From positions 1,088,001 to 1,152,000 of the forward strand of contig CAVSGO010000007.1 of NCBI GenBank assembly GCA_963727525.1: 64,000 bases of DNA. The letters run 5' to 3'. The position numbers were made by a program, and so were the translations under genes. Below, piece after piece: positions 978-57,882 of the stretch; position 1 is the first letter of the stretch, and every line of letters starts with the position of its first letter. This DNA is from an uncultured bacterium. GTDB taxonomy: Bacteria > Krumholzibacteriota > Krumholzibacteriia > LZORAL124-64-63. Below the pieces are notes generated by a model. That model was not told the DNA's origin. It saw only the letters and a program-made list of their open reading frames with translations, and did no database searches.

Positions 978-3327
978 TCAATCATCGAGATCCGGTAGGT
1001 CATCCCCGAAAAGATCGGGCAAGTCGGCCGGTTTGACGAGCACGTCGCGCGCCTTGCTGCCGGTGAACGGCCCCACGATACCCGCCTCCTCCATCATGTC
1101 CATGAGTCGACCGGCCCGGGTATAGCCGATCCGCAGGCGCCGCTGCAGGAGCGACGTGGAGCCACTCTGGTGCGTCACGACGACACGGACGGCGTCGTTG
1201 AAGAGATCATCGTCGCCGGTGTGCACGCCCGCGGAGCCGTCGGCGCCGCCGGCGGTGAGGGAGATCTCCTCGGCCACGTGGGAGTACTCGCGCCAGTGCG
1301 CCGCCACGGCCTCGCACTCCTCCACCTCGACCAGCGCCCCATGCACGCGCACGGGCAGGGCGCGGCCGGGCTGCAGGTAAAGCATGTCGCCCTTGCCGAG
1401 CAAGGCCTCAGCGCCATTCATGTCGAGGATCGTGCGCGAGTCGTTCTTCTGGATCACTCGGAAGGCGATGCGGCAGGGGATGTTGGCCTTGATCACGCCG
1501 GTGAGCACGTCCACGCTGGGACGCTGCGTGGCCAGGATGAGGTGGATGCCCACGGCGCGCGCCTTCTGGGCGAGGCGGGTTACGGGGATCTCGAATTCCT
1601 GGCCGAGCTGCATCATGAGGTCGGCCAGCTCGTCGACGATGGTCAGGTAGTAGGGCATGGGCTCGGTGATGGGATCGCCGTCGGGCCTGGTGACCTCGCC
1701 GCGCGCCACCTTGGCGTTGTACTGCTCGATGTTGCGCACCGAACACTTGGCGAGCTGGCGATAGCGCAGGTCCATCTGCGCCGTCATCCATTTCATCGCT
1801 CGCAGGGCCTCCTTGGGATCCGTGACGACCGGCAGCAGGAGGTGCGGGATGCCGTTGTACACGTTCAGTTCGAGCATCTTGGGATCGATGAGCAGCAGCC
1901 GTAGCAGCGACGGGTCGTTGTAGAGCAGCAGGTTGGTGACCATGGCATTGATGCAAACCGATTTCCCGCTGCCCGTGGAGCCGGCCACCAGCAGATGCGG
2001 CTGTGCCGCGAGGTCGATGGCCACCGGCTGCCCCTCGACGTCCTTGCCCAGCACCACGGTGAGCGGATGGCGCGGCTGGGTGCGCGTGGCCTCGACCACC
2101 TCGCGCAGGCGCACGATCTGCGCCTTGCTGTTGGGGATCTCGATCCCCACGGCGGCCTTGCCCGGAATAGGCGCCTCCATGCGCAGCGAGCGCGCCTTCA
2201 TGGCCAGCGCGAGATCGTCGGACCGCTGCACGATCTGACTGACGCGGATACCCGCCGCCGGCTGGTACTCGAAGGTGGTGACCACCGGCCCCGGTCGCAC
2301 GTCCTTCACTTCGCCCTGTACGCCGAAGGAGCGCAGGGTGTCCTCGAGCAGGTCGGCCTCGGCGTCGAGCTCGGCAGGGCTCAGCTCGAGCTCCTCCTCC
2401 TCGGGCTCGCGCAGCAGATCGAGATCCGGCAGCTCCACCGGACCCTCGGGGTTGAACGCGGGCGCGAAGCCCAGTTCCGCGTCGGCCGCGCCGATTGCGG
2501 CCGCGACCGGTTGCAGTACGCGCTCGTCGGGTTCGGGCGGCAGGTGCAGGCGGCGCTGCTTGGGCGGAGGCGGCAGGGCGTTGGTATCCTCCTCCTCGTC
2601 CTCCTCGTCGTCTTCCGGCGCCGGCGCCCCCCCGCGCGCGGACGGGGCGCGGCGCCCCCGCGAGGGCTTCGGCTCCGACGTCGCCGACCGCGGCCACAGG
2701 CTGGCCAGGCCGCGCCACATGCTGCGTCCCAGCGCCGCCAGACCGCGGCCGATCCCGGTCAGCAAGACTCCCAGGCCACGGCCCAGCAGCTCGAGAACGG
2801 CTCGCAGGGGCGGCAACCAGGGGCGCAGGATCACGAGCACGACGACCAGGACCGCGAGGCCCGTGAAGAGGCGCCCTCCGCCCAGGCCAAAGACCGCGGT
2901 GAGGCCGCGGGCGATCCACACGCCCGACGCACCGGCCCAGCGCGCGGACACGTCGGGCCCCCAGGACCACCCGGGCAACCCGGCCATGGCCACGGTGGCC
3001 AGCCATAGCGGCGCGAGGCGCGCGAGCAACCAGCGCAGCAAGGCCGTACGATTGATCAGGCCCCCCACGCCCACGAGCGCCAGAACCACCGGCACCCCCC
3101 AGCACCAGGCGGCCCCGAAGAGGGCGTTCAGGGCGACATCGAGCACGGCGCCCACGGGCCCGCCCGGATGGCCGGGAGTGAGCAGAGTCGGCAGGTGCTC
3201 GCCCCGTAGCAGGCGCCACCAGGGCACCGTGGGGCCGGTGAGGGACAGACCGATGTACGCCGCCAGCGCCAGCAGGCACAGGCCCATCAACCAGGACGAT
3301 TCGTACCAGGGACGATGACTCGGGGCG

Positions 3328-3356
<29 letters not shown>
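978..3356 (-). CDS. ftsK: DNA translocase FtsK/SpoIIIE
   Basis: N-terminal TM segments, [14 protein letters not shown] Walker [14 protein letters not shown], and the C-terminal gamma domain ([19 protein letters not shown]). Confidence 0.97.
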
Positions 3357-4710
<1,354 letters not shown>

Positions 4711-4820
4711 GCGACGCATCCTCGCTGCGGGCCCATCGTTTACGCACGCCGGAGTCCACCGCCGACGGGTGGCCGACCCCGGCCCATGGTCGGGCATGGC
4801 GGCCGTGTTGGCAAGGGGTG

Positions 4821-6048
4821 CGTTGTACCCGCGAAATTGTGCATGCCTGGTTCCACGGTCGGAATTCATTGACCGCCGCGCCCGCTTCTAGAACGCGTAC
4901 TTCAGCTCGTGCCGCCGATTCACCCCCAGTACCGGCGTCTCCACCAGACCCCAGTAGTACTCCCGCCACCTCTCAGGCAACCCGATCCGCCCTGGAAACA
5001 ACCGTATCTCCAGGATGTCTGCCACCGTCAACCGCCGCGCCACCAGCCCCCGCAACATCGCCGGCGTCGACCAGCACCGCTTCTCCCAGCGCTTCTTCAC
5101 GAAGTTCTTCCACACCACGAACACCGCGAATCGCTCCGCCGCGGCCTGACGGCGCCGTGCGAATGCGATCGTCTCCCGCCGATGATCCGCCCGACTGTGC
5201 CGGATGAATGCATCCAGCGCGTTGATCTCGAACAGCGGATTGCGAGTATCCCGCTTCGCCCGCGAACTGATCGTCTGGTGGTCGATTTCAACGGCCAGTC
5301 CCCGCATCGCCCGCGGATAGGCCTGATGCTCGTCGCTATGCACCGTCGCCACGGTGGCCCCGGCCAGGGTGACCTCGAGCACCTCGCGCATCCCTTGCTC
5401 GACAGCTTTCGGGTCAGGCGTCCCGAACGCGGCTTCGAGCGCTGCTCGACGCATCTTCTGGGCCTCGCTCATCCGGCCGCTTCGCCGCTGCGGCGCCTCG
5501 GTGAAGTGCTCGACGAAGCTGTTGTCCCGGTTGACGGCGACCAGGAACTCGAACGGGTAGTCCTGGCTGTACTCGAAGGTGACGAAGCCATCGATGGCGA
5601 TGTCAGCGGGAGGAGACGCTCCGGTGAGCATGTGTCGCTGAAAGAGCAGGCAGTGGCGGCCGAGGCGGGCGAGCTGGAGATCGGCGGTCGCGGGAGCACA
5701 TTTGAGCGTCCGGGCCGCCTGGCGGTTGGCCATGGCGTTGACGGAGAGATCGAGGATCAGGGGCAGCAGAAGCGGCTTCTTGAGCCAGTAGGTGGTGGAG
5801 AAGGTCTGTTTGGAGAAGGATCGGCCGCAGTGTCGGCACTGGAAGCGGGGGACGAGGTGGGGCGGGTTGAGTCGTCGGAAGTACCCGCGCCTGAGGAAGG
5901 GCCAGGGGCCGTGCATGTGGTGGTGGTGGTGGCAGTTGGGGTTGGGGCAGTGAGGCGGGGACCAGGGTTGAGCTGAGGGCGAAGTCGGTGAGCACATGGC
6001 CTCGGGTCAGGCAAGCACCGGGCCATGCACAATTTCGCAGGTACAACC
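4821..6048 (-). mobile_element. Insertion sequence, copy 1 (IS1/IS1595-like, ~1.23 kb)
   Basis: Terminal inverted repeats GTTGTACC(C/T)GCGAAATTGTGCAT at 4822-4844 and 6025-6047 enclose one transposase ORF. A near-identical copy lies at 56001-57227. Confidence 0.92.
4888..5997 (-). CDS. Transposase, Zn-ribbon + HTH + DDE/D-type core (IS1-like)
   Basis: CPNPNC...CRHC zinc ribbon, HTH (NRQAARTLKC), and acidic motifs IAIDGFVTFE and VHSDEHQAY. Flanked by IRs and duplicated in the window. Confidence 0.88.
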   Translation of the reverse strand: MCSPTSPSAQPWSPPHCPNPNCHHHHHMHGPWPFLRRGYFRRLNPPHLVPRFQCRHCGRSFSKQTFSTTYWLKKPLLLPLILDLSVNAMANRQAARTLKCAPATADLQLARLGRHCLLFQRHMLTGASPPADIAIDGFVTFEYSQDYPFEFLVAVNRDNSFVEHFTEAPQRRSGRMSEAQKMRRAALEAAFGTPDPKAVEQGMREVLEVTLAGATVATVHSDEHQAYPRAMRGLAVEIDHQTISSRAKRDTRNPLFEINALDAFIRHSRADHRRETIAFARRRQAAAERFAVFVVWKNFVKKRWEKRCWSTPAMLRGLVARRLTVADILEIRLFPGRIGLPERWREYYWGLVETPVLGVNRRHELKYAF

Positions 6049-6082
6049 CAACGCAAGCGGGGAGCCCGGAAAGGCCCCCCGC
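6049..6082 (-). terminator. Intrinsic terminator-like hairpin downstream of the pilT-like gene
   Basis: Minus strand GCGGGGGGCCT-TTCC-GGGCTCCCCGC followed by TTGCGTTG, 16 nt after the stop codon. The U-tract is weak. Confidence 0.6.
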
Positions 6083-6098: not shown

Positions 6099-7244
6099 TC
6101 AGGAGCGAGAGGGTTCGGCCTGGGGAATCGACGGCGTGGCTTCGAAGCGGTCCCATGTGGTGTCGCTGCTACCCTGGATACCCTTGACACGCAGCGCGAA
6201 CTCGTGCGGGTTGCTCGAGGCGTGCATGGCTGCATCGAGGGTGATCTTGTTCTGCTTGAAGAGCTGCATGAGCGACTGATCGAAGGTCTGCATCTGATAC
6301 TGCACGAAGCCTTCCTGGATCGCCTGGCGAATGAGCACCGTCTTCTCCGGGTCGCGGATGTAGTCGCGGATGGTGCTGGTGGCGATCATGATCTCGGCGG
6401 CCGGGTACCGGCGCTCGCCCGCCGGATCAGCGACCAGGCGCTGGGAGATGACGGCCTGCATCGTGGAAGCGAGCAGGAAACGGATTTCTTGATGCTGGTG
6501 CGGCGGGAAAAACGAGATGATGCGGCTGATCGTCTGCGTGGCGTCGATGGTGTGCATGGTGCTCAGCACGAGGTGGCCCGTGTCGGCCGCCGTGAGGGCG
6601 ACGCGCATCGACTCGGTGTCGCGGATCTCGCCGATGAGGATGGTGTCGGGATCCTGACGCAGGATGTGCTTGAGCGCCTCGGGATAGCCGCCGGTGTCGG
6701 CGCCGATCTCGCGCTGGCTGATGATGCTCTTCTTGTCCCGGTGCAGGAACTCGATCGGGTCCTCGATGGTGATCACGTGGCACGAGCACTCGGTGTTGAT
6801 GATGTCGACCATCGAGGCAAGGGTCGTGGACTTGCCGCTGCCGACGGTGCCGGTGACCAGGATCATGCCGCGCGGTTTGATGGCGAGGTCGCGAATCACG
6901 GCGGGCAACTGCAGTTCCTCGAGAGTCTTGATCTGCACGGGCACGTGACGGAAGACCATGGCGATGGAGCCGCGCTGCACGTAGAAATTGGCGCGGAAAC
7001 GGGCCACGCCGGGCACGCCGAAGGCGAAGTCGATCTCGCGCGTCTTCTCGAACTGCTCGCGCTGAGTGGCCGTGAGGATCTGCTGGGCGATCGCCACCAT
7101 GTCCTGCACGGCGGGCGCGCCATGGGACATGAAGACGAGATGCCCGTTGATACGCAGGACGGGCGGCGAGGCGACCTTGAGATGCAGATCGCTGGCCCCC
7201 CGCTCGATCATTTCTTTCAGGATACGCTTGATGTCCAGAGCCAC
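6099..7244 (-). CDS. pilT: PilT/PilU-family type IV pilus retraction ATPase
   Basis: ASDLHLKV, VTGTVGSGKSTT, ITIEDPIEF, LRQDPDTILIGEIRD, TGHLVLSTMHT, MQTFDQSL. GTG start at 7244 behind AAGGAG. Confidence 0.9.
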   Translation of the reverse strand: MALDIKRILKEMIERGASDLHLKVASPPVLRINGHLVFMSHGAPAVQDMVAIAQQILTATQREQFEKTREIDFAFGVPGVARFRANFYVQRGSIAMVFRHVPVQIKTLEELQLPAVIRDLAIKPRGMILVTGTVGSGKSTTLASMVDIINTECSCHVITIEDPIEFLHRDKKSIISQREIGADTGGYPEALKHILRQDPDTILIGEIRDTESMRVALTAADTGHLVLSTMHTIDATQTISRIISFFPPHQHQEIRFLLASTMQAVISQRLVADPAGERRYPAAEIMIATSTIRDYIRDPEKTVLIRQAIQEGFVQYQMQTFDQSLMQLFKQNKITLDAAMHASSNPHEFALRVKGIQGSSDTTWDRFEATPSIPQAEPSRS

Positions 7245-7383
7245 GAGGACGCTCCTTGCTGGCATACGCGAACCGGCCGTCGCGGACGGCGGAGGGGCGG
7301 ACGAGCCCCCTTCACCTGCGATGATCGGCCGGGGCGCGTCGAACTTGAGCCAGGGAGCGCGGAGCCATCTGGCGAGACCCCGG

Positions 7384-32169: not shown

Positions 32170-32817
32170 TCAGATATCGTAGAGCCCACGCCCCACACGC
32201 TTGATTCGCGTGCTCGTGGAGAGCGTGCGTCGCAGCACGTTGTCGAAGTTGGCGCTCTTCGTGGCGAACAGCTTCTTACTCGTGATGGTCTTCAGAAGCT
32301 CCTGGAACGGGATCGCCTCGCCGCGCCTGGCGATGACGTCGTGGATGACGTCCTCGAGGGTCACCTTCCCGCCCGCGCGCGCCTTCGTCGTCTTGCCCGT
32401 TTTCTTCGCAGTTTTCTTGGCGGCCTTCTTCGCCGACTTCTTGGTCACCTTCTTCTTGGTCGCCTTCTTCCTGGTCGTCTTCTTCCTGGTCGCCTTCTTC
32501 TTGGCGGCCTTCTTCGCGGTCTTCTTGGCGGCCTTCTTCCCTACCTTCTTGGCAACCTTCTTGGTCGTCTTGCGCCCCCGCTTCTTACGGCCCGTCTTCT
32601 TACGGGCTGTCTTGCGCACCGACCGGCGACCCGCGGCCTTACCGCTCATGACCGACCCGGCGACCAGCTGGGATAGCTCGTCCTCGATCAGGTCCAGTTC
32701 GTCGCGCAACTCCGTCCGGCGTTCCTCGAGCGTCTCGATACGCTCCTTCGTAGCAATCAGCTCCTCCAGCTCCGCACGACTCAGACCCTTGAGAAGGGTC
32801 ATGACGTTGGTTGGCAT
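32170..32817 (-). CDS. Histone H1-like Lys/Ala-rich DNA-binding protein (coiled coil + basic linker + winged-helix-like C-terminus)
   Basis: Acidic heptad N-terminus, about 90 aa of KKAAKK/KKTAKK repeats, C-terminal TLEDVIHDVI...RVGRGLY. ATG at 32817 behind AAGGAG. Confidence 0.85.
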   Translation of the reverse strand: MPTNVMTLLKGLSRAELEELIATKERIETLEERRTELRDELDLIEDELSQLVAGSVMSGKAAGRRSVRKTARKKTGRKKRGRKTTKKVAKKVGKKAAKKTAKKAAKKKATRKKTTRKKATKKKVTKKSAKKAAKKTAKKTGKTTKARAGGKVTLEDVIHDVIARRGEAIPFQELLKTITSKKLFATKSANFDNVLRRTLSTSTRIKRVGRGLYDI

Positions 32818-49432: not shown

Positions 49433-50477
49433 GGCGGACCTGAAGAGGCACGAACGACCGCTGGTCCTCGCAGAGCCTGCGGGGGCGGTCGTTCGTGCCT
49501 CTTCAGGTCCGCCGGAACGTTGACCCCACCCTCGTCGCGGGTTCGGACCTTCTCCGGTGTTCCTTATCCAGCAAATGCTTGTTGCGGCCTTGCGGGAGAG
49601 GATTGGGGGCACGAACGACCGCTGGTCCTCGCAGAGCCTGCGGGGGCGGTCGTTCGTGCCTCTTCAGGTCCGCCGGAACGTTGACCCTACCCTCGTCGCG
49701 GGTTCGGACCTTCTCCGGTGTTCCTTATCCAGCAAATGCTTGTTGCGGCCTTGCGGGAGAGGATTGGGGGCACGAACGACCGCTGGTCCTCGCAGAGCCT
49801 GCGGGGGCGGTCGTTCGTGCCTCTTCAGGTCCGCCGGAACGTTGACCCCACCCTCGTCGCGGGTTCGGACCTCCCTCGTAGGTCCTTCACCAGCAAGTGC
49901 TTGATATTGCCTTGCGGGAGAGGAATGGGGGTACGAACGACCGCTGGTCCTCGCAGAGCCTGCGGGGGCGGTCGTTTCGTGTCTCTTCAGGTCCGCCGGA
50001 ACGTTGGGCCCACCCTCGTCGCGGAATCGGAGCTCCCTCGGCGTTCCCTCCCCAGCAAGTGCTTGATACCTTGCGGGAAGAGGGTTGAGGACGCGAAGGG
50101 ACACTGGTCCTGCCAGAGCCTGCGGGAGCGGTCGTTCGTGCCTCTTCAGGTCCGCCGGAACGTTGCCCCCCCTCGTCGTGGCTTCGGAACTCCCTCGGCG
50201 TCCCCTCCCCAGCAAGTGCTCGTTACGGCCTTGCGGGAGGAGGGTTGAGGACGCGAAGGGACGCTGGTCCTCGCAGAGCCTGCGGGAGCGGTCGTTCGTG
50301 CCTCTTCAGGTCCGCCGGAACGTTGCCCCCCCTCGTCGTGGCTTCGGAACTCCCTCGGCGTCCCCTCCCCAGCAAGTGCTCGTTACGGCCTTGCGGGAGG
50401 AGGGTTGAGGACGCGAAGGGACGCCCCCGCAGGCTTTGCGAGGACCAGCGTCCCTTCGCGTCCTCAACCCTCCTCCC
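49433..50477. repeat. Structured tandem repeat array (six 160/161-bp units plus an inverted terminal core; REP/BIME-like)
   Basis: Core GCTGGTCCTCGCAGAGCCTGCGGG(G/A)GC at 49460, 49621, 49782, 49943, 50103 (variant) and 50263, inverted at 50423. Perfect 29-bp and 30-bp stems at the two ends. Confidence 0.95.
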
Positions 50478-55198: not shown

Positions 55199-55347
55199 CC
55201 CCAAATACGCGGGTGCCCCGGTCCGTTCCGCCAACTCCATGTTAGCATGTTCGCCATTTATTCGCAACGATCATCTCGCGAATACCGACATCGCTTCGGG
55301 ATTTCATAAGACTACGTACCACCTTTATTGTGAGGAAATTTTATGTA

Positions 55348-55376
55348 TTGCCACTCCTTCACTCATCCCCTATACT
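55348..55376 (+). promoter_or_regulatory. Sigma70-type promoter for the secreted protein at 55435
   Basis: TTGCCA-N17-TATACT with an AT-rich upstream region. Confidence 0.7.
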
Positions 55377-55434
55377 CAATTCGCTCGGTGGGAGTGAACC
55401 CAGGACATGTTCGGGGATTTGGAGGAGGACTTCG

Positions 55435-55938
55435 ATGAAGACGTTGTTGATGCTTCCGTTGATCTTGATGCTGGCATCGCTTGCCGTGGCCGATCCCGTG
55501 TTGAACGACACGTGCGACAGCGCGGCGTACCTCGCCAACATACACCACGATTTTTCGATCAATCTTTGCGACTACTCGAATGACTACACGATGCCCGACG
55601 GCAGCTGCGTGGACGGCAACGGTGCCGGTCCCGACGCTGTCTATCGCTGGACGTTCCCGGGCACCGAGGCCGCGCAGGTCACGGCCGAGACCGAGAGCGG
55701 CATGCCGGTGTCGATGTATCTGATCACCGACTGCGGCGATCCTGCCGGCTCGTGCGTGGCAGGAAGCACGTCCACGGCCGACACGCCGGCGCTCATCGAC
55801 TTCTCGGGCCTCCACGGGGCGCTCTACTTCCTCGTCATCGACACCGAGGGTGAATGCGACGTCGTCAACGTCGGACTCTCGGGCGCGGTGGCGACGGATA
55901 CGCCCAGCTGGAGTACGGTGAAGTCCCTGTACCGCTAG
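55435..55938 (+). CDS. Small secreted Cys-containing protein with C-terminal 'SWSTVKSLYR' motif
   Basis: GGAGGAGG RBS, signal peptide MKTLLMLPLILMLASLAVA, NDTC, GPDAVY, YFLVID (pre-peptidase-like beta domain). Confidence 0.85.
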   Translation: MKTLLMLPLILMLASLAVADPVLNDTCDSAAYLANIHHDFSINLCDYSNDYTMPDGSCVDGNGAGPDAVYRWTFPGTEAAQVTAETESGMPVSMYLITDCGDPAGSCVAGSTSTADTPALIDFSGLHGALYFLVIDTEGECDVVNVGLSGAVATDTPSWSTVKSLYR

Positions 55939-55962: not shown

Positions 55963-55997
55963 AAGCGGCGACCGGTCCCTGACCGGTCGCCGTTTTC
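55963..55997 (+). terminator. Intrinsic terminator
   Basis: AAGCGGCGACCGGTC-CCT-GACCGGTCGCCG-TTTTC. Confidence 0.85.
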
Positions 55998-56000
55998 TTG

Positions 56001-57227
56001 GGTTGTACCTGCGAAATTGTGCATGGCCCGGTGCTTGCCTGACCCGAGGCCATGTGCTCACCGACTTCGCCCTCAGCTCAACCCTGGTCCCCGCCTCACT
56101 GCCCCAACCCCAACTGCCACCACCACCACCACATGCACGGCCCCTGGCCCTTCCTCAGGCGCGGGTACTTCCGACGACTCAACCCGCCCCACCTCGTCCC
56201 CCGCTTCCAGTGCCGACACTGCGGCCGATCCTTCTCCAAACAGACCTTCTCCACCACCTACTGGCTCAAGAAGCCGCTTCTGCTGCCCCTGATCCTCGAT
56301 CTCTCCGTCAACGCCATGGCCAACCGCCAGGCGGCCCGGACGCTCAAATGTGCTCCCGCGACCGCCGATCTCCAGCTCGCCCGCCTCGGCCGCCACTGCC
56401 TGCTCTTTCAGCGACACATGCTCACCGGAGCGTCTCCTCCCGCTGACATCGCCATCGATGGCTTCGTCACCTTCGAGTACAGCCAGGACTACCCGTTCGA
56501 GTTCCTGGTCGCCGTCAACCGGGACAACAGCTTCATCGAGCACTTCACCGAGGCGCCGAAGCGGCGTAGCGGCCGGATGAGCGAGGCCCAGAAGATGCGT
56601 CGAGCGGCGCTCGAAGCCGCGTTCGGGACGCCTGACCCGAAAGCTGTCGAGCAAGGGATGCGCGAGGTGCTCGAGGTCACCCTGGCGGGGGCCACCGTGG
56701 CGACGGTGCATAGCGACGAGCATCAGGCCTATCCGCGGGCGATGCGGGGACTGGCCGTTGAAATCGACCACCAGACGATCAGTTCGCGGGCGAAGCGGGA
56801 TGCCCGCAATCCGCTGTTCGAGATCAATGCGCTGGATGCATTCATCCGGCACAGTCGGGCGGATCATCGGCGGGAGACGATCGCGTTCGCACGGCGCCGT
56901 CAGGCCGCGGCGGAGCGATTCGCGGTGTTCGTGGTGTGGAAGAACTTCGTGAAGAAGCGCTGGGAGAAGCGGTGCTGGTCGACGCCGGCGATGTTGCGGG
57001 GGCTGGTGGCGCGGCGGTTGACGGTGGCAGACATCCTGGAGACGCGGTTGTTTCCGGGGCGGATCGGGTTGCCTGAGAGGTGGCGGGAGTACTACTGGGG
57101 TCTGGTGGAGACGCCGGTGGTGGGGGTGAATCGGCGGCACGAGCTGAAGTACGCGTTCTAGAAGCGGATGCCGCGGTCGGTGAATTCCGGCCGCGGAACC
57201 AGTATGCACAATTTCGCGGGTACAACC
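56001..57227 (+). mobile_element. Insertion sequence, copy 2 (IS1/IS1595-like)
   Basis: 24-bp IRs GGTTGTACC(T/C)GCGAAATTGTGCAT at 56001-56024 and 57204-57227. Confidence 0.93.
56052..57161 (+). CDS. Transposase (IS1-like), second copy
   Basis: 369 aa, differing from the 4888-5997 copy at 5 residues found by eye, all in the C-terminal ~60%. Confidence 0.88.
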   Translation: MCSPTSPSAQPWSPPHCPNPNCHHHHHMHGPWPFLRRGYFRRLNPPHLVPRFQCRHCGRSFSKQTFSTTYWLKKPLLLPLILDLSVNAMANRQAARTLKCAPATADLQLARLGRHCLLFQRHMLTGASPPADIAIDGFVTFEYSQDYPFEFLVAVNRDNSFIEHFTEAPKRRSGRMSEAQKMRRAALEAAFGTPDPKAVEQGMREVLEVTLAGATVATVHSDEHQAYPRAMRGLAVEIDHQTISSRAKRDARNPLFEINALDAFIRHSRADHRRETIAFARRRQAAAERFAVFVVWKNFVKKRWEKRCWSTPAMLRGLVARRLTVADILETRLFPGRIGLPERWREYYWGLVETPVVGVNRRHELKYAF

Positions 57228-57236
57228 GAAAAATTA

Positions 57237-57318: not shown

Positions 57319-57882
57319 ATGCCGAGCATTTTCCCCGATCCCTCGCCGCAGGGACCAGACACGGCGGCGGCGGTCGATGCCAGCGTCGATCGCCGCGTCC
57401 TGACGGCGCTGCGTCAGATCATCCGCGCCGTCGACCTCTACTCGCGGCGCCTCGTGGAACAGTTCCGGGTGACGGGACCGCAGCTCGTCTGCCTGAATCA
57501 GCTCGCGGAGGCCGAGGTCCTGACGGTGACGGAGCTGGCCCGTCGCGTGCAACTCAGCCCGAGTACCGTGGTCCGCATCCTCGATCGGCTCGAGGCCCGC
57601 GCGTTCGTGACCCGGACGCGTTCGGTCAGCGATCGCCGTGTGGTCGCCGTGGCCATCACGCCAGTGGGCCGACAGCTCTCCCAGGTGACGCCCTACGCGG
57701 GCCAGCATCCCCTGCGGCAGGCGCTGCAGACTCTGGATCCCGCCGATCGCGCCCGTATCGCCGACGACCTTGAGCACCTGGTCACGGCGATGGATGCGCC
57801 GTCCGTCGAGGCGGTCGAGGAGAGCCTCGGACTGCCGCCTCTCGTCACGGGCACGACTCCCAACTCGACCGCCGACCACTAG
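57319..57882 (+). CDS. MarR-family regulator (EctR/CosR-like)
   Basis: LTALRQIIRAVDLYSRRL...VTGPQLVCL...LSPSTVVRILDRLE...RSVSDRRVV. Confidence 0.9.
   Translation: MPSIFPDPSPQGPDTAAAVDASVDRRVLTALRQIIRAVDLYSRRLVEQFRVTGPQLVCLNQLAEAEVLTVTELARRVQLSPSTVVRILDRLEARAFVTRTRSVSDRRVVAVAITPVGRQLSQVTPYAGQHPLRQALQTLDPADRARIADDLEHLVTAMDAPSVEAVEESLGLPPLVTGTTPNSTADH

Follow-up and report, generated by a model that had tools for sequence, protein, structure and literature searches.

Two copies of the same IS1-like element lie about 50 kb apart and in inverted orientation in the 64,000-nucleotide stretch analyzed here (the window), and each begins 8 nt behind a GC-rich hairpin without a direct repeat at its borders. 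The question that this locus raises is whether the element seeks out transcription terminators, and whether it integrates there in a way that leaves no target duplication. We addressed it by comparing the two copies with each other and with related elements from other genomes.

Two element copies beside hairpins in the window

The two copies share 98% nucleotide identity (24 differences in 1228 aligned columns; Table 1), and the 369-aa open reading frame (ORF) is intact in both, with five amino acid differences between the two transposases. We observe that 10 of the 24 differences cluster in the 66 noncoding nt that separate the stop codon from the right end (57161-57227 and 4821-4887). Each copy is bounded by 24-bp terminal inverted repeats starting GGTTGTACC, with copy 2 opening on GGTTGTAC at 56001, and the inverted-repeat consensus GGTTGTGCC...GA.ATTGTG is common to the window copies and their relatives. 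By the family definition of the ends, copy 1 stops at 4821, where the outermost base of the right end is not complementary to the left end.

Upstream of copy 2, a perfect GC-rich 12-bp stem ends in the G-C pair C55966-G55992, and a spacer of 8 nt (TTTTCTTG) leads from this pair to the element. The RNA fold of this hairpin reaches -28.4 kcal/mol (z = -6.7), with 0 of 200 shuffled sequences folding as well. On the minus strand, the first base of copy 1 is 6048, which likewise lies 8 nt (TTGCGTTG) behind a stem, and here the fold reaches -27.0 kcal/mol (z = -3.3; 0/200 shuffles as good). Both hairpins are complete and not cut into by the element, and the distance from the stop codon of the upstream gene to the hairpin is 24 to 27 nt for copy 2 and 16 nt for copy 1, with both upstream genes co-oriented with the transposase. 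Strong hairpins, defined as -18 kcal/mol or stronger and lying 3 to 9 nt outward of a junction, occur on one given side at about 0.5% of all flank positions in the related loci and on either side at 1.6% of positions in crudely defined noncoding DNA; the presence of both window copies (2/2) beside such hairpins is therefore beyond chance.

With the ends defined by the family, the 9-mers that flank the element agree at 3 of 9 positions for copy 2 and at 5 of 9 for copy 1. A preliminary description of this DNA had stated that both copies start 8 nt after a stem, that they are co-oriented with the gene upstream, and that no direct repeat flanks either of them, and all three statements agree with our results. 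Its designation of both stems as terminators stands for copy 2, the only one of the two hairpins to pass a consensus terminator scan; the copy 1 hairpin fails the T-run rule of the scan, with a tail of 4 T in 8.

Several rearrangements and alternative end definitions were considered for the window copies and rejected. A swap of flanks between them, by recombinational or duplicative inversion, gives 4/9 and 2/9 matches, and the outer flanks of the 50-kb segment, compared by eye, are not repeated as they would be in a composite transposon. Moving the ends by as much as 4 nt or allowing duplications of 7 to 11 bp yields 3 matching loci among 48, against 3.8 expected.

Table 1. Positions of the two element copies and of the features around them in the window
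Feature	Position	Strand	Remarks
IS copy 2, 1227 bp	56001..57227	+	Inverted-repeat pair I1/I17; ends by family consensus NN+TTGT(G/A)CC
Left terminal inverted repeat, copy 2 (24 bp)	56001..56024	+	One T/C mismatch with right repeat
Right terminal inverted repeat, copy 2	57204..57227	+	
Transposase ORF, copy 2, 369 aa	56052..57161	+	Zinc ribbon, helix-turn-helix, DDE core (D136, D222, E257)
Left flanking 9-mer, copy 2	55992..56000	+	GTTTTCTTG; the terminator T-tract
Right flanking 9-mer, copy 2	57228..57236	+	GAAAAATTA; no repeat of left 9-mer; carries A2 and T8
Intrinsic-terminator hairpin upstream of copy 2	55966..55992	+	12-bp stem, loop CCT
Co-oriented ORF upstream of copy 2	55330..55938	+	No Pfam family; product end ...SWSTVKSLYR
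MarR-family regulator gene downstream of copy 2	57319..57882	+	After 91-nt AT-rich spacer
IS copy 1, 1228 bp	4821..6048	-	Ends by family consensus
Transposase ORF, copy 1, 369 aa	4888..5997	-	
Left flanking 9-mer, copy 1	6049..6057	-	CTTGCGTTG
Right flanking 9-mer, copy 1	4812..4820	-	CACCCCTTG
GC-rich hairpin after the PilT-like gene	6057..6082	-	10-bp stem, one G-U pair, weak T-tail
PilT-like T2SSE ATPase gene upstream of copy 1	6099..7265	-	
Biotin carboxylase gene downstream of copy 1	3328..4710	-	

The surroundings of the two copies hold further features. On the minus strand, the order between 3328 and 7821 is biotin carboxyl carrier protein, PilT-like ATPase, hairpin, IS copy 1, and biotin carboxylase, with pilT and IS copy 1 separating two acetyl-CoA carboxylase genes that are usually adjacent. 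At 49447-50407, a 161-bp unit is repeated six times in tandem with 91% matches, each unit carrying a long GC-rich inverted repeat, in an intergenic position directly after a stop codon. Repeats of 12, 15, 24, and 45 nt of the type CTTCTTGGCGGC occupy 32364-32613; read on the opposite strand, they would specify a repetitive stretch of protein rich in Lys and Ala. No Rfam family reaches its gathering score anywhere in the window.

An IS1-like transposase from a large unnamed family

The relationship to IS1 that the preliminary description had proposed is evident in the N-terminal part of the protein, where hhalign aligns the family profile with Escherichia coli IS1 InsA over residues 38 to 114 (probability 93.9%, E = 1.6e-7). 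The NCBIfam IS1 model gives a weak match over the same zinc-finger region (18.7 bits, against a cutoff of 100). The match to the NCBIfam domain model NF050000, relevant to IS1595, is likewise weak (E = 0.055) and does not reach the cutoff of that model. The catalytic part is recognized by no model of Pfam or NCBIfam: PF03400 (DDE_Tnp_IS1) matches neither the window protein nor any of 18 family members, DDE_Tnp_IS1595 finds no match in the 18 family members at E values up to 1, and hhalign of the family profile with InsB yields no credible alignment (probability 5%). A sequence search of the PDB with the family profile returned chance zinc-finger matches only (E = 0.09 or worse). Language-model neighbors, which we take as a lead only, include clusters that are named IS1 family or carry PF03400 (score 0.93).

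Residues D136, D222, and E257 are invariant in 110 sequences, and in the AlphaFold model of the transposase (pLDDT 89, pTM 0.89) they sit at the expected places of a beta1-3/alpha/beta4/alpha/beta5/alpha order, as in the RNase H fold. Foldseek ranks retroviral integrases (E = 6e-6) and the ISCth4 transposase (E = 3e-4) highest among PDB structures, at modest TM-scores (0.25 to 0.5). The predicted structure, with its RNase H fold and its D, D, E triad, thus places the protein in the DDE RNase-H-like superfamily, and we conclude that the transposase is IS1-like and not a member of IS1 proper.

The likeness to IS1 of E. coli extends over the InsA-like zinc ribbon and helix-turn-helix at the N terminus, terminal inverted repeats of about 24 bp starting with GG, and, in relatives though not in the two window copies (3/9 and 5/9 matches), a 9-bp target duplication (see below). 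The element differs from IS1 in its length (1.2 kb, against 768 bp), in a catalytic domain that the IS1 models do not recognize, and in its coding arrangement, which is a single uninterrupted ORF of 369 aa in both copies (and a single ORF also in the relatives) where IS1 joins insA and insB by a programmed -1 frameshift; single-ORF subgroups exist within IS1. With the IS1595 family it shares a single-ORF DDE transposase and the N-terminal zinc-binding domain that IS1595 has in common with IS1, and it differs from that family in lacking a match to DDE_Tnp_IS1595 and in a duplication that is 9 bp long in the relatives, that of IS1595 being typically 8 bp. For IS1, a duplication of 8 or 9 bp is given in PMC12428005.

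The family is large: of the candidates scored, at least 1731 proteins reach an E value of 1e-3 or lower, and almost all of these are unnamed and about 368 aa long. In species-representative genomes, at least 459 loci were confirmed. Since standard domain libraries do not recognize the catalytic part, genome annotation calls these proteins hypothetical. The best 80 of the 459 confirmed loci were analyzed, with identities of 42 to 60%; the source genome of the window is not among them. Their hosts are uncultured Krumholzibacteriota, Eisenbacteria, Latescibacterota, and Gemmatimonadota, as well as records labeled Fibrobacteraceae, and tblastn found no relatives on plasmids. Two of the relatives are probably decayed copies, namely, L002, with an aberrant right terminus (3200-3225; GGCAC followed by CTAC, not AACC) and an element length of 1304 bp, and L054, with a broken ORF of 283 aa.

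Target duplications and a 9-bp target signature in the relatives

Both element ends, which consist of two variable bases followed by TTGTGCC, were located in 75 of 82 sequences (the 80 loci and the two window copies), with an end lying beyond the contig in the other seven (L020, L039, L053, L061, L063, L075, and L076). Four loci with short flanks or poor end scores were also left out (L050, L051, L071, and L077), and the 71 sequences that were kept (69 relatives and the two window copies) have good ends and flanks of 100 nt or more. The flanking 9-mers are identical at all nine positions in 13 of the 69 relatives and agree at 8/9 in five, 7/9 in three, and 6/9 in two more, with the remaining 46 relatives at 5/9 or fewer. 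Perfect 9-mers are beyond chance and point to a family that transposes by a 9-bp staggered cut like that of IS1. An atypical transposase working without target duplication, as had been suggested from the window copies, is at odds with these 13 perfect duplications and the 10 further matches at 6 to 8 of 9 positions; terminator insertions with the geometry of copy 2, such as L022, are among these loci.

When the flanks are aligned on the junctions, a clear base signature appears. With a background of 16% per base for A and T, we observe A at -8 in 59% of the flanks, T at -2 in 67% (G never occurs there), A at +2 in 68%, and T at +8 in 57%, accompanied by G at -1 in 38% and at +9 in 51%. The signature is symmetric, since it puts A at the second and T at the eighth position of the 9-mer that is duplicated, and 41% of the junction 9-mers are AT rich (at least six A/T), compared with 2.6% of background 9-mers. 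The window copies follow this pattern, with T at position 8 in all four flanking 9-mers, a TG end in three of the four, and A at position 2 in both right-hand 9-mers. The TTG that ends both spacers, to which the preliminary description drew attention, is present as stated and belongs to this family-wide signature (T at -2, G at -1), not to the terminators.

The 46 duplication-less loci carry the signature on both sides, including its distal positions (A at -8 in 25/46, T at +8 in 22/46). This suggests that the mismatch between the flanks arose later, and the simplest reading is that each such junction would go back to an ordinary 9-bp-staggered integration, with flanks that now derive from different targets. 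Furthermore, the duplication state is scattered over the transposase tree (a quick tree from which L054, with its broken ORF, was left out), with 17 changes compared to a shuffled mean of 19, and near-identical copies on one 4.7-Mb contig differ in state (L042, 9/9; L044, 1/9). In this single-contig genome, three of eight sampled copies match at 6/9 or better, which is the same share as overall. A search for partner flanks among 18 multicopy sets from the best 80 of the 459 loci found no left 9-mer that matches the right 9-mer of another copy at 8/9 or better.

Two further candidates for a general property of the duplication-less copies were rejected. A separate class with duplication of a TA dinucleotide is not apparent, since TA stands on both sides in 8 loci with about 5 expected (marginals, 14/46 and 17/46), L004 excepted. 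Complementarity between the flanks is marginal as a general trait, with runs of six or more in 3/48, compared to 0.8 expected. In addition, L027 and L036, both from the 4.7-Mb contig, have an identical left 9-mer (CAGGCTGTG), and the sequence further out differs.

We also observe that at 8 of the 71 insertion sites the junction is at, or directly behind, a gene with a product ending like W-G/S-x-V-K-x-L-Y/F-R/K (the ORF at 55330-55938 in the window and the flanks of L026, L069, L035, L049, L079, L033, and L047). Five relatives have the element directly against the stop codon, with TA from the flank and the first G of the element forming TAG.

Terminator bias and its possible causes

Across the family, 10 of the 69 relatives lie 3 to 9 nt from a strong hairpin, compared to 0.62 expected from all flank positions of the same loci (P = 7e-10). 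The distances are also concentrated: 17 strong hairpins occur no more than 40 nt from a junction, and 11 of them lie at 4 to 9 nt, compared to about 2.5 expected under uniform spacing. A co-directional ORF with high GC3 precedes the junction in 11 of the 13 hairpin flanks, those of the window copies among them, and ends 37 to 123 nt away from it; the hairpins at the junctions are therefore real gene-end terminators, with their T-rich side toward the element. The duplicated 9-mer is the T-tract itself in L022, L055, L072, and L080; L022 reproduces the geometry of copy 2, with a tail that is almost the same as that of copy 2 and is perfectly duplicated.

The excess holds when base composition is matched. 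Hairpin-adjacent positions make up 12% (7/57) of junctions with 9-mers of at least six A/T, compared to 0.8% (47/6007) of such 9-mers in the background and 1.7% (34/1966) in a crude noncoding background; for an AT-rich 9-mer beside a GC-rich 12-mer, the proportions are 26% (10/38) and 0.9% (159/17265). Hairpin adjacency in comparison with crude noncoding DNA overall is about 8 to 14% versus 1.6%. AT-richness alone is excluded as the cause by these controls, and because the hairpin excess survives composition matching, sequence preference alone may not be its whole story. Terminator sites are nevertheless a minority of the family's insertions (about 15%), and about half of the junction 9-mers (64/138) are scored as coding by a crude mask.

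The terminator targeting proposed in the preliminary description thus survives as a family-wide bias that concerns about 15% of sites and acts in both orientations. The tabulation of distances and orientations that it called for, carried out on the relatives, gives the peak at 4 to 9 nt (11/17) together with mixed orientations and 9-bp duplications. The orientation specificity that it had assumed is not seen in the relatives, where the hairpin lies on the left-end side in seven cases and on the right-end side in four (one locus is in both counts). The bias may stem from sequence preference, structure recognition, or both, and selection certainly contributes to it.

As a whole, we consider it moderately probable that the element is an autonomous insertion sequence that duplicates 9 bp, prefers AT-rich targets, including the T-tracts of terminators, and has lost its duplications secondarily in the window. 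It would belong to a large, unnamed, IS1-related family. The expected role of the InsA-like zinc ribbon and helix-turn-helix is to hold on to the 24-bp terminal inverted repeats, and the DDE RNase-H-like core would make the 9-bp-staggered cuts that give rise to the 9-bp duplication. The preferred targets would be AT-rich 9-mers with A2 and T8 in GC-rich surroundings, and at about 68% G+C such 9-mers would be found, among other places, in the T-tract behind terminator stems. Where the T-tract serves as the target 9-mer, the element end would consequently lie 8 to 9 nt from the stem, and since an insertion behind a terminator would harm neither of the neighboring genes, it would persist. IS1 itself has a preference for AT-rich targets and mediates deletions and inversions. 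The missing duplications of the window copies would likewise have secondary reasons, with one flank of each copy exchanged later through an IS-mediated adjacent deletion or inversion or through recombination with a further copy located elsewhere than in the window. Such an exchange would also apply to the two thirds of the relatives whose unmatched flanks both carry the target signature. Against flank exchange stand the lack of any partner flank in the multicopy sets searched, the absence of duplications throughout the window's own clade, and the flanks of L004, which it does not explain. The reading as a whole is further weakened by the hairpin excess under matched composition and by a catalytic domain that neither the IS1 nor the IS1595 models recognize.

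This clade, which consists of the two window copies (W1 and W2), L001, L002, L004, L008, and L010 (SH-aLRT, 99), contains no member with a duplication (0/7). In three of its members the flanks pair with each other, over 8 bp in L004, 5 bp in L008 (7 bp with G-U), and 5 bp in L010, placing the element in the loop of a hairpin; complementary runs of five or more are found in 5.9% of mismatched flank pairs. Around L004 (1837-1881 and 3101-3145) the flanks make up an 8-bp palindrome, and counting TA as a duplication of 2 bp brings back a TAA stop codon; the flanks of this locus clearly belong together. The clade flanks carry T at -2 in 6/7 and A at +2 in 6/7, spaced by 9 bp as in the rest of the family.

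An alternative is that the window sub-lineage recognizes hairpins in DNA, or transcription complexes in the act of terminating, and inserts next to or within them while duplicating little or nothing of the target, which would amount to a safe-site strategy by a DDE transposase. We regard this as unlikely, even though the 0/7 count, the position of both window copies 8 nt after strong hairpins, the mutually complementary flanks of L004, L008, and L010, and the family-wide hairpin excess under composition-matched controls all speak for it. With a base rate of one third, 0/5 independent relatives with a duplication is expected 13 to 15% of the time, and the geometry varies within the clade, with the window copies beside a hairpin, L004 and L008 in a loop, and L001 and L002 at none. 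In addition, the clade flanks show the family's 9-bp-spaced signature, and near-identical copies in one genome are found in both states (L042 and L044). The palindrome pattern, which comprises small numbers and was noticed post hoc, keeps a clade-specific, structure-directed mode alive at a low probability.

A second alternative, which we consider improbable, is that the family has no insertion preference at all and that selection against insertions in promoters or genes leaves the copies at terminators as survivors. A terminator tail is a neutral location, and the low share of insertions at hairpins, with 64/138 junction 9-mers scored coding by the crude mask and many sites elsewhere, would fit this explanation. 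It does not account for the concentration of strong hairpins at 4 to 9 nt (11/17 versus about 2.5 expected) or for an excess that holds against a noncoding background (1.6%), and the base signature at -8, -2, +2, and +8 reflects a real target choice. Most of the related loci come from metagenome-assembled genomes, in which contigs might be misjoined across a repeated element, but such artifacts are very improbable as the main cause of the missing duplications, because the 4.7-Mb single-contig genome shows the same proportion (3/8) and the window copies lie in continuous sequence with intact neighboring genes.

Two known systems are relevant to the terminator bias. As described in PMC4923244, IS1272/TnSha1 of staphylococci (IS1182 family) is a DDE element that targets terminator hairpins without duplication, cutting within the stem and deleting part of the hairpin, and to that extent it is a published precedent for the terminator-targeting idea of the preliminary description. 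The window element differs from it in that the hairpins are intact and the element lies 8 nt downstream, the relatives duplicate 9 bp, and the transposase families are unrelated. Group IIC introns, according to PMC7923331, insert just after the stem-loops of Rho-independent terminators or of attC sites, and they resemble the window element as mobile elements directly behind a terminator and co-oriented with it. They are, however, retroelements built on a ribozyme and a reverse transcriptase, and it is in single-stranded nucleic acid that they recognize the hairpin, whereas the window element has a DDE transposase and inverted repeats, with no Rfam match in the window. Among the papers listed by full-text literature searches, mostly outside subscription journals, none describes an IS1-type element with a terminator bias in its title or in the opening of its abstract. 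It is doubtful that an IS1-related DDE lineage actively reads intrinsic terminators, by way of the extruded or single-stranded hairpin with its T-tract or of the terminating polymerase, with a fixed register behind the stem and a duplication of 0 to 2 bp in the window's clade; if it did, this would be a safe-harbor strategy that the papers considered here report only for group IIC introns and IS1272.

The reading that we favor, of a 9-bp-duplicating insertion sequence with AT-rich targets, does not overturn the known picture of IS1-type transposition. What this large family, frequent in candidate phyla that are little known, adds to it is a 9-bp target signature that is now documented and a bias toward terminator T-tracts that can be measured. 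Because so many copies lack matching duplications, the family seems to reshuffle the genomes of its hosts often. The bias is useful in the annotation of these genomes, and also for the question of how harmless sites are located by DDE transposases where the DNA is GC rich.
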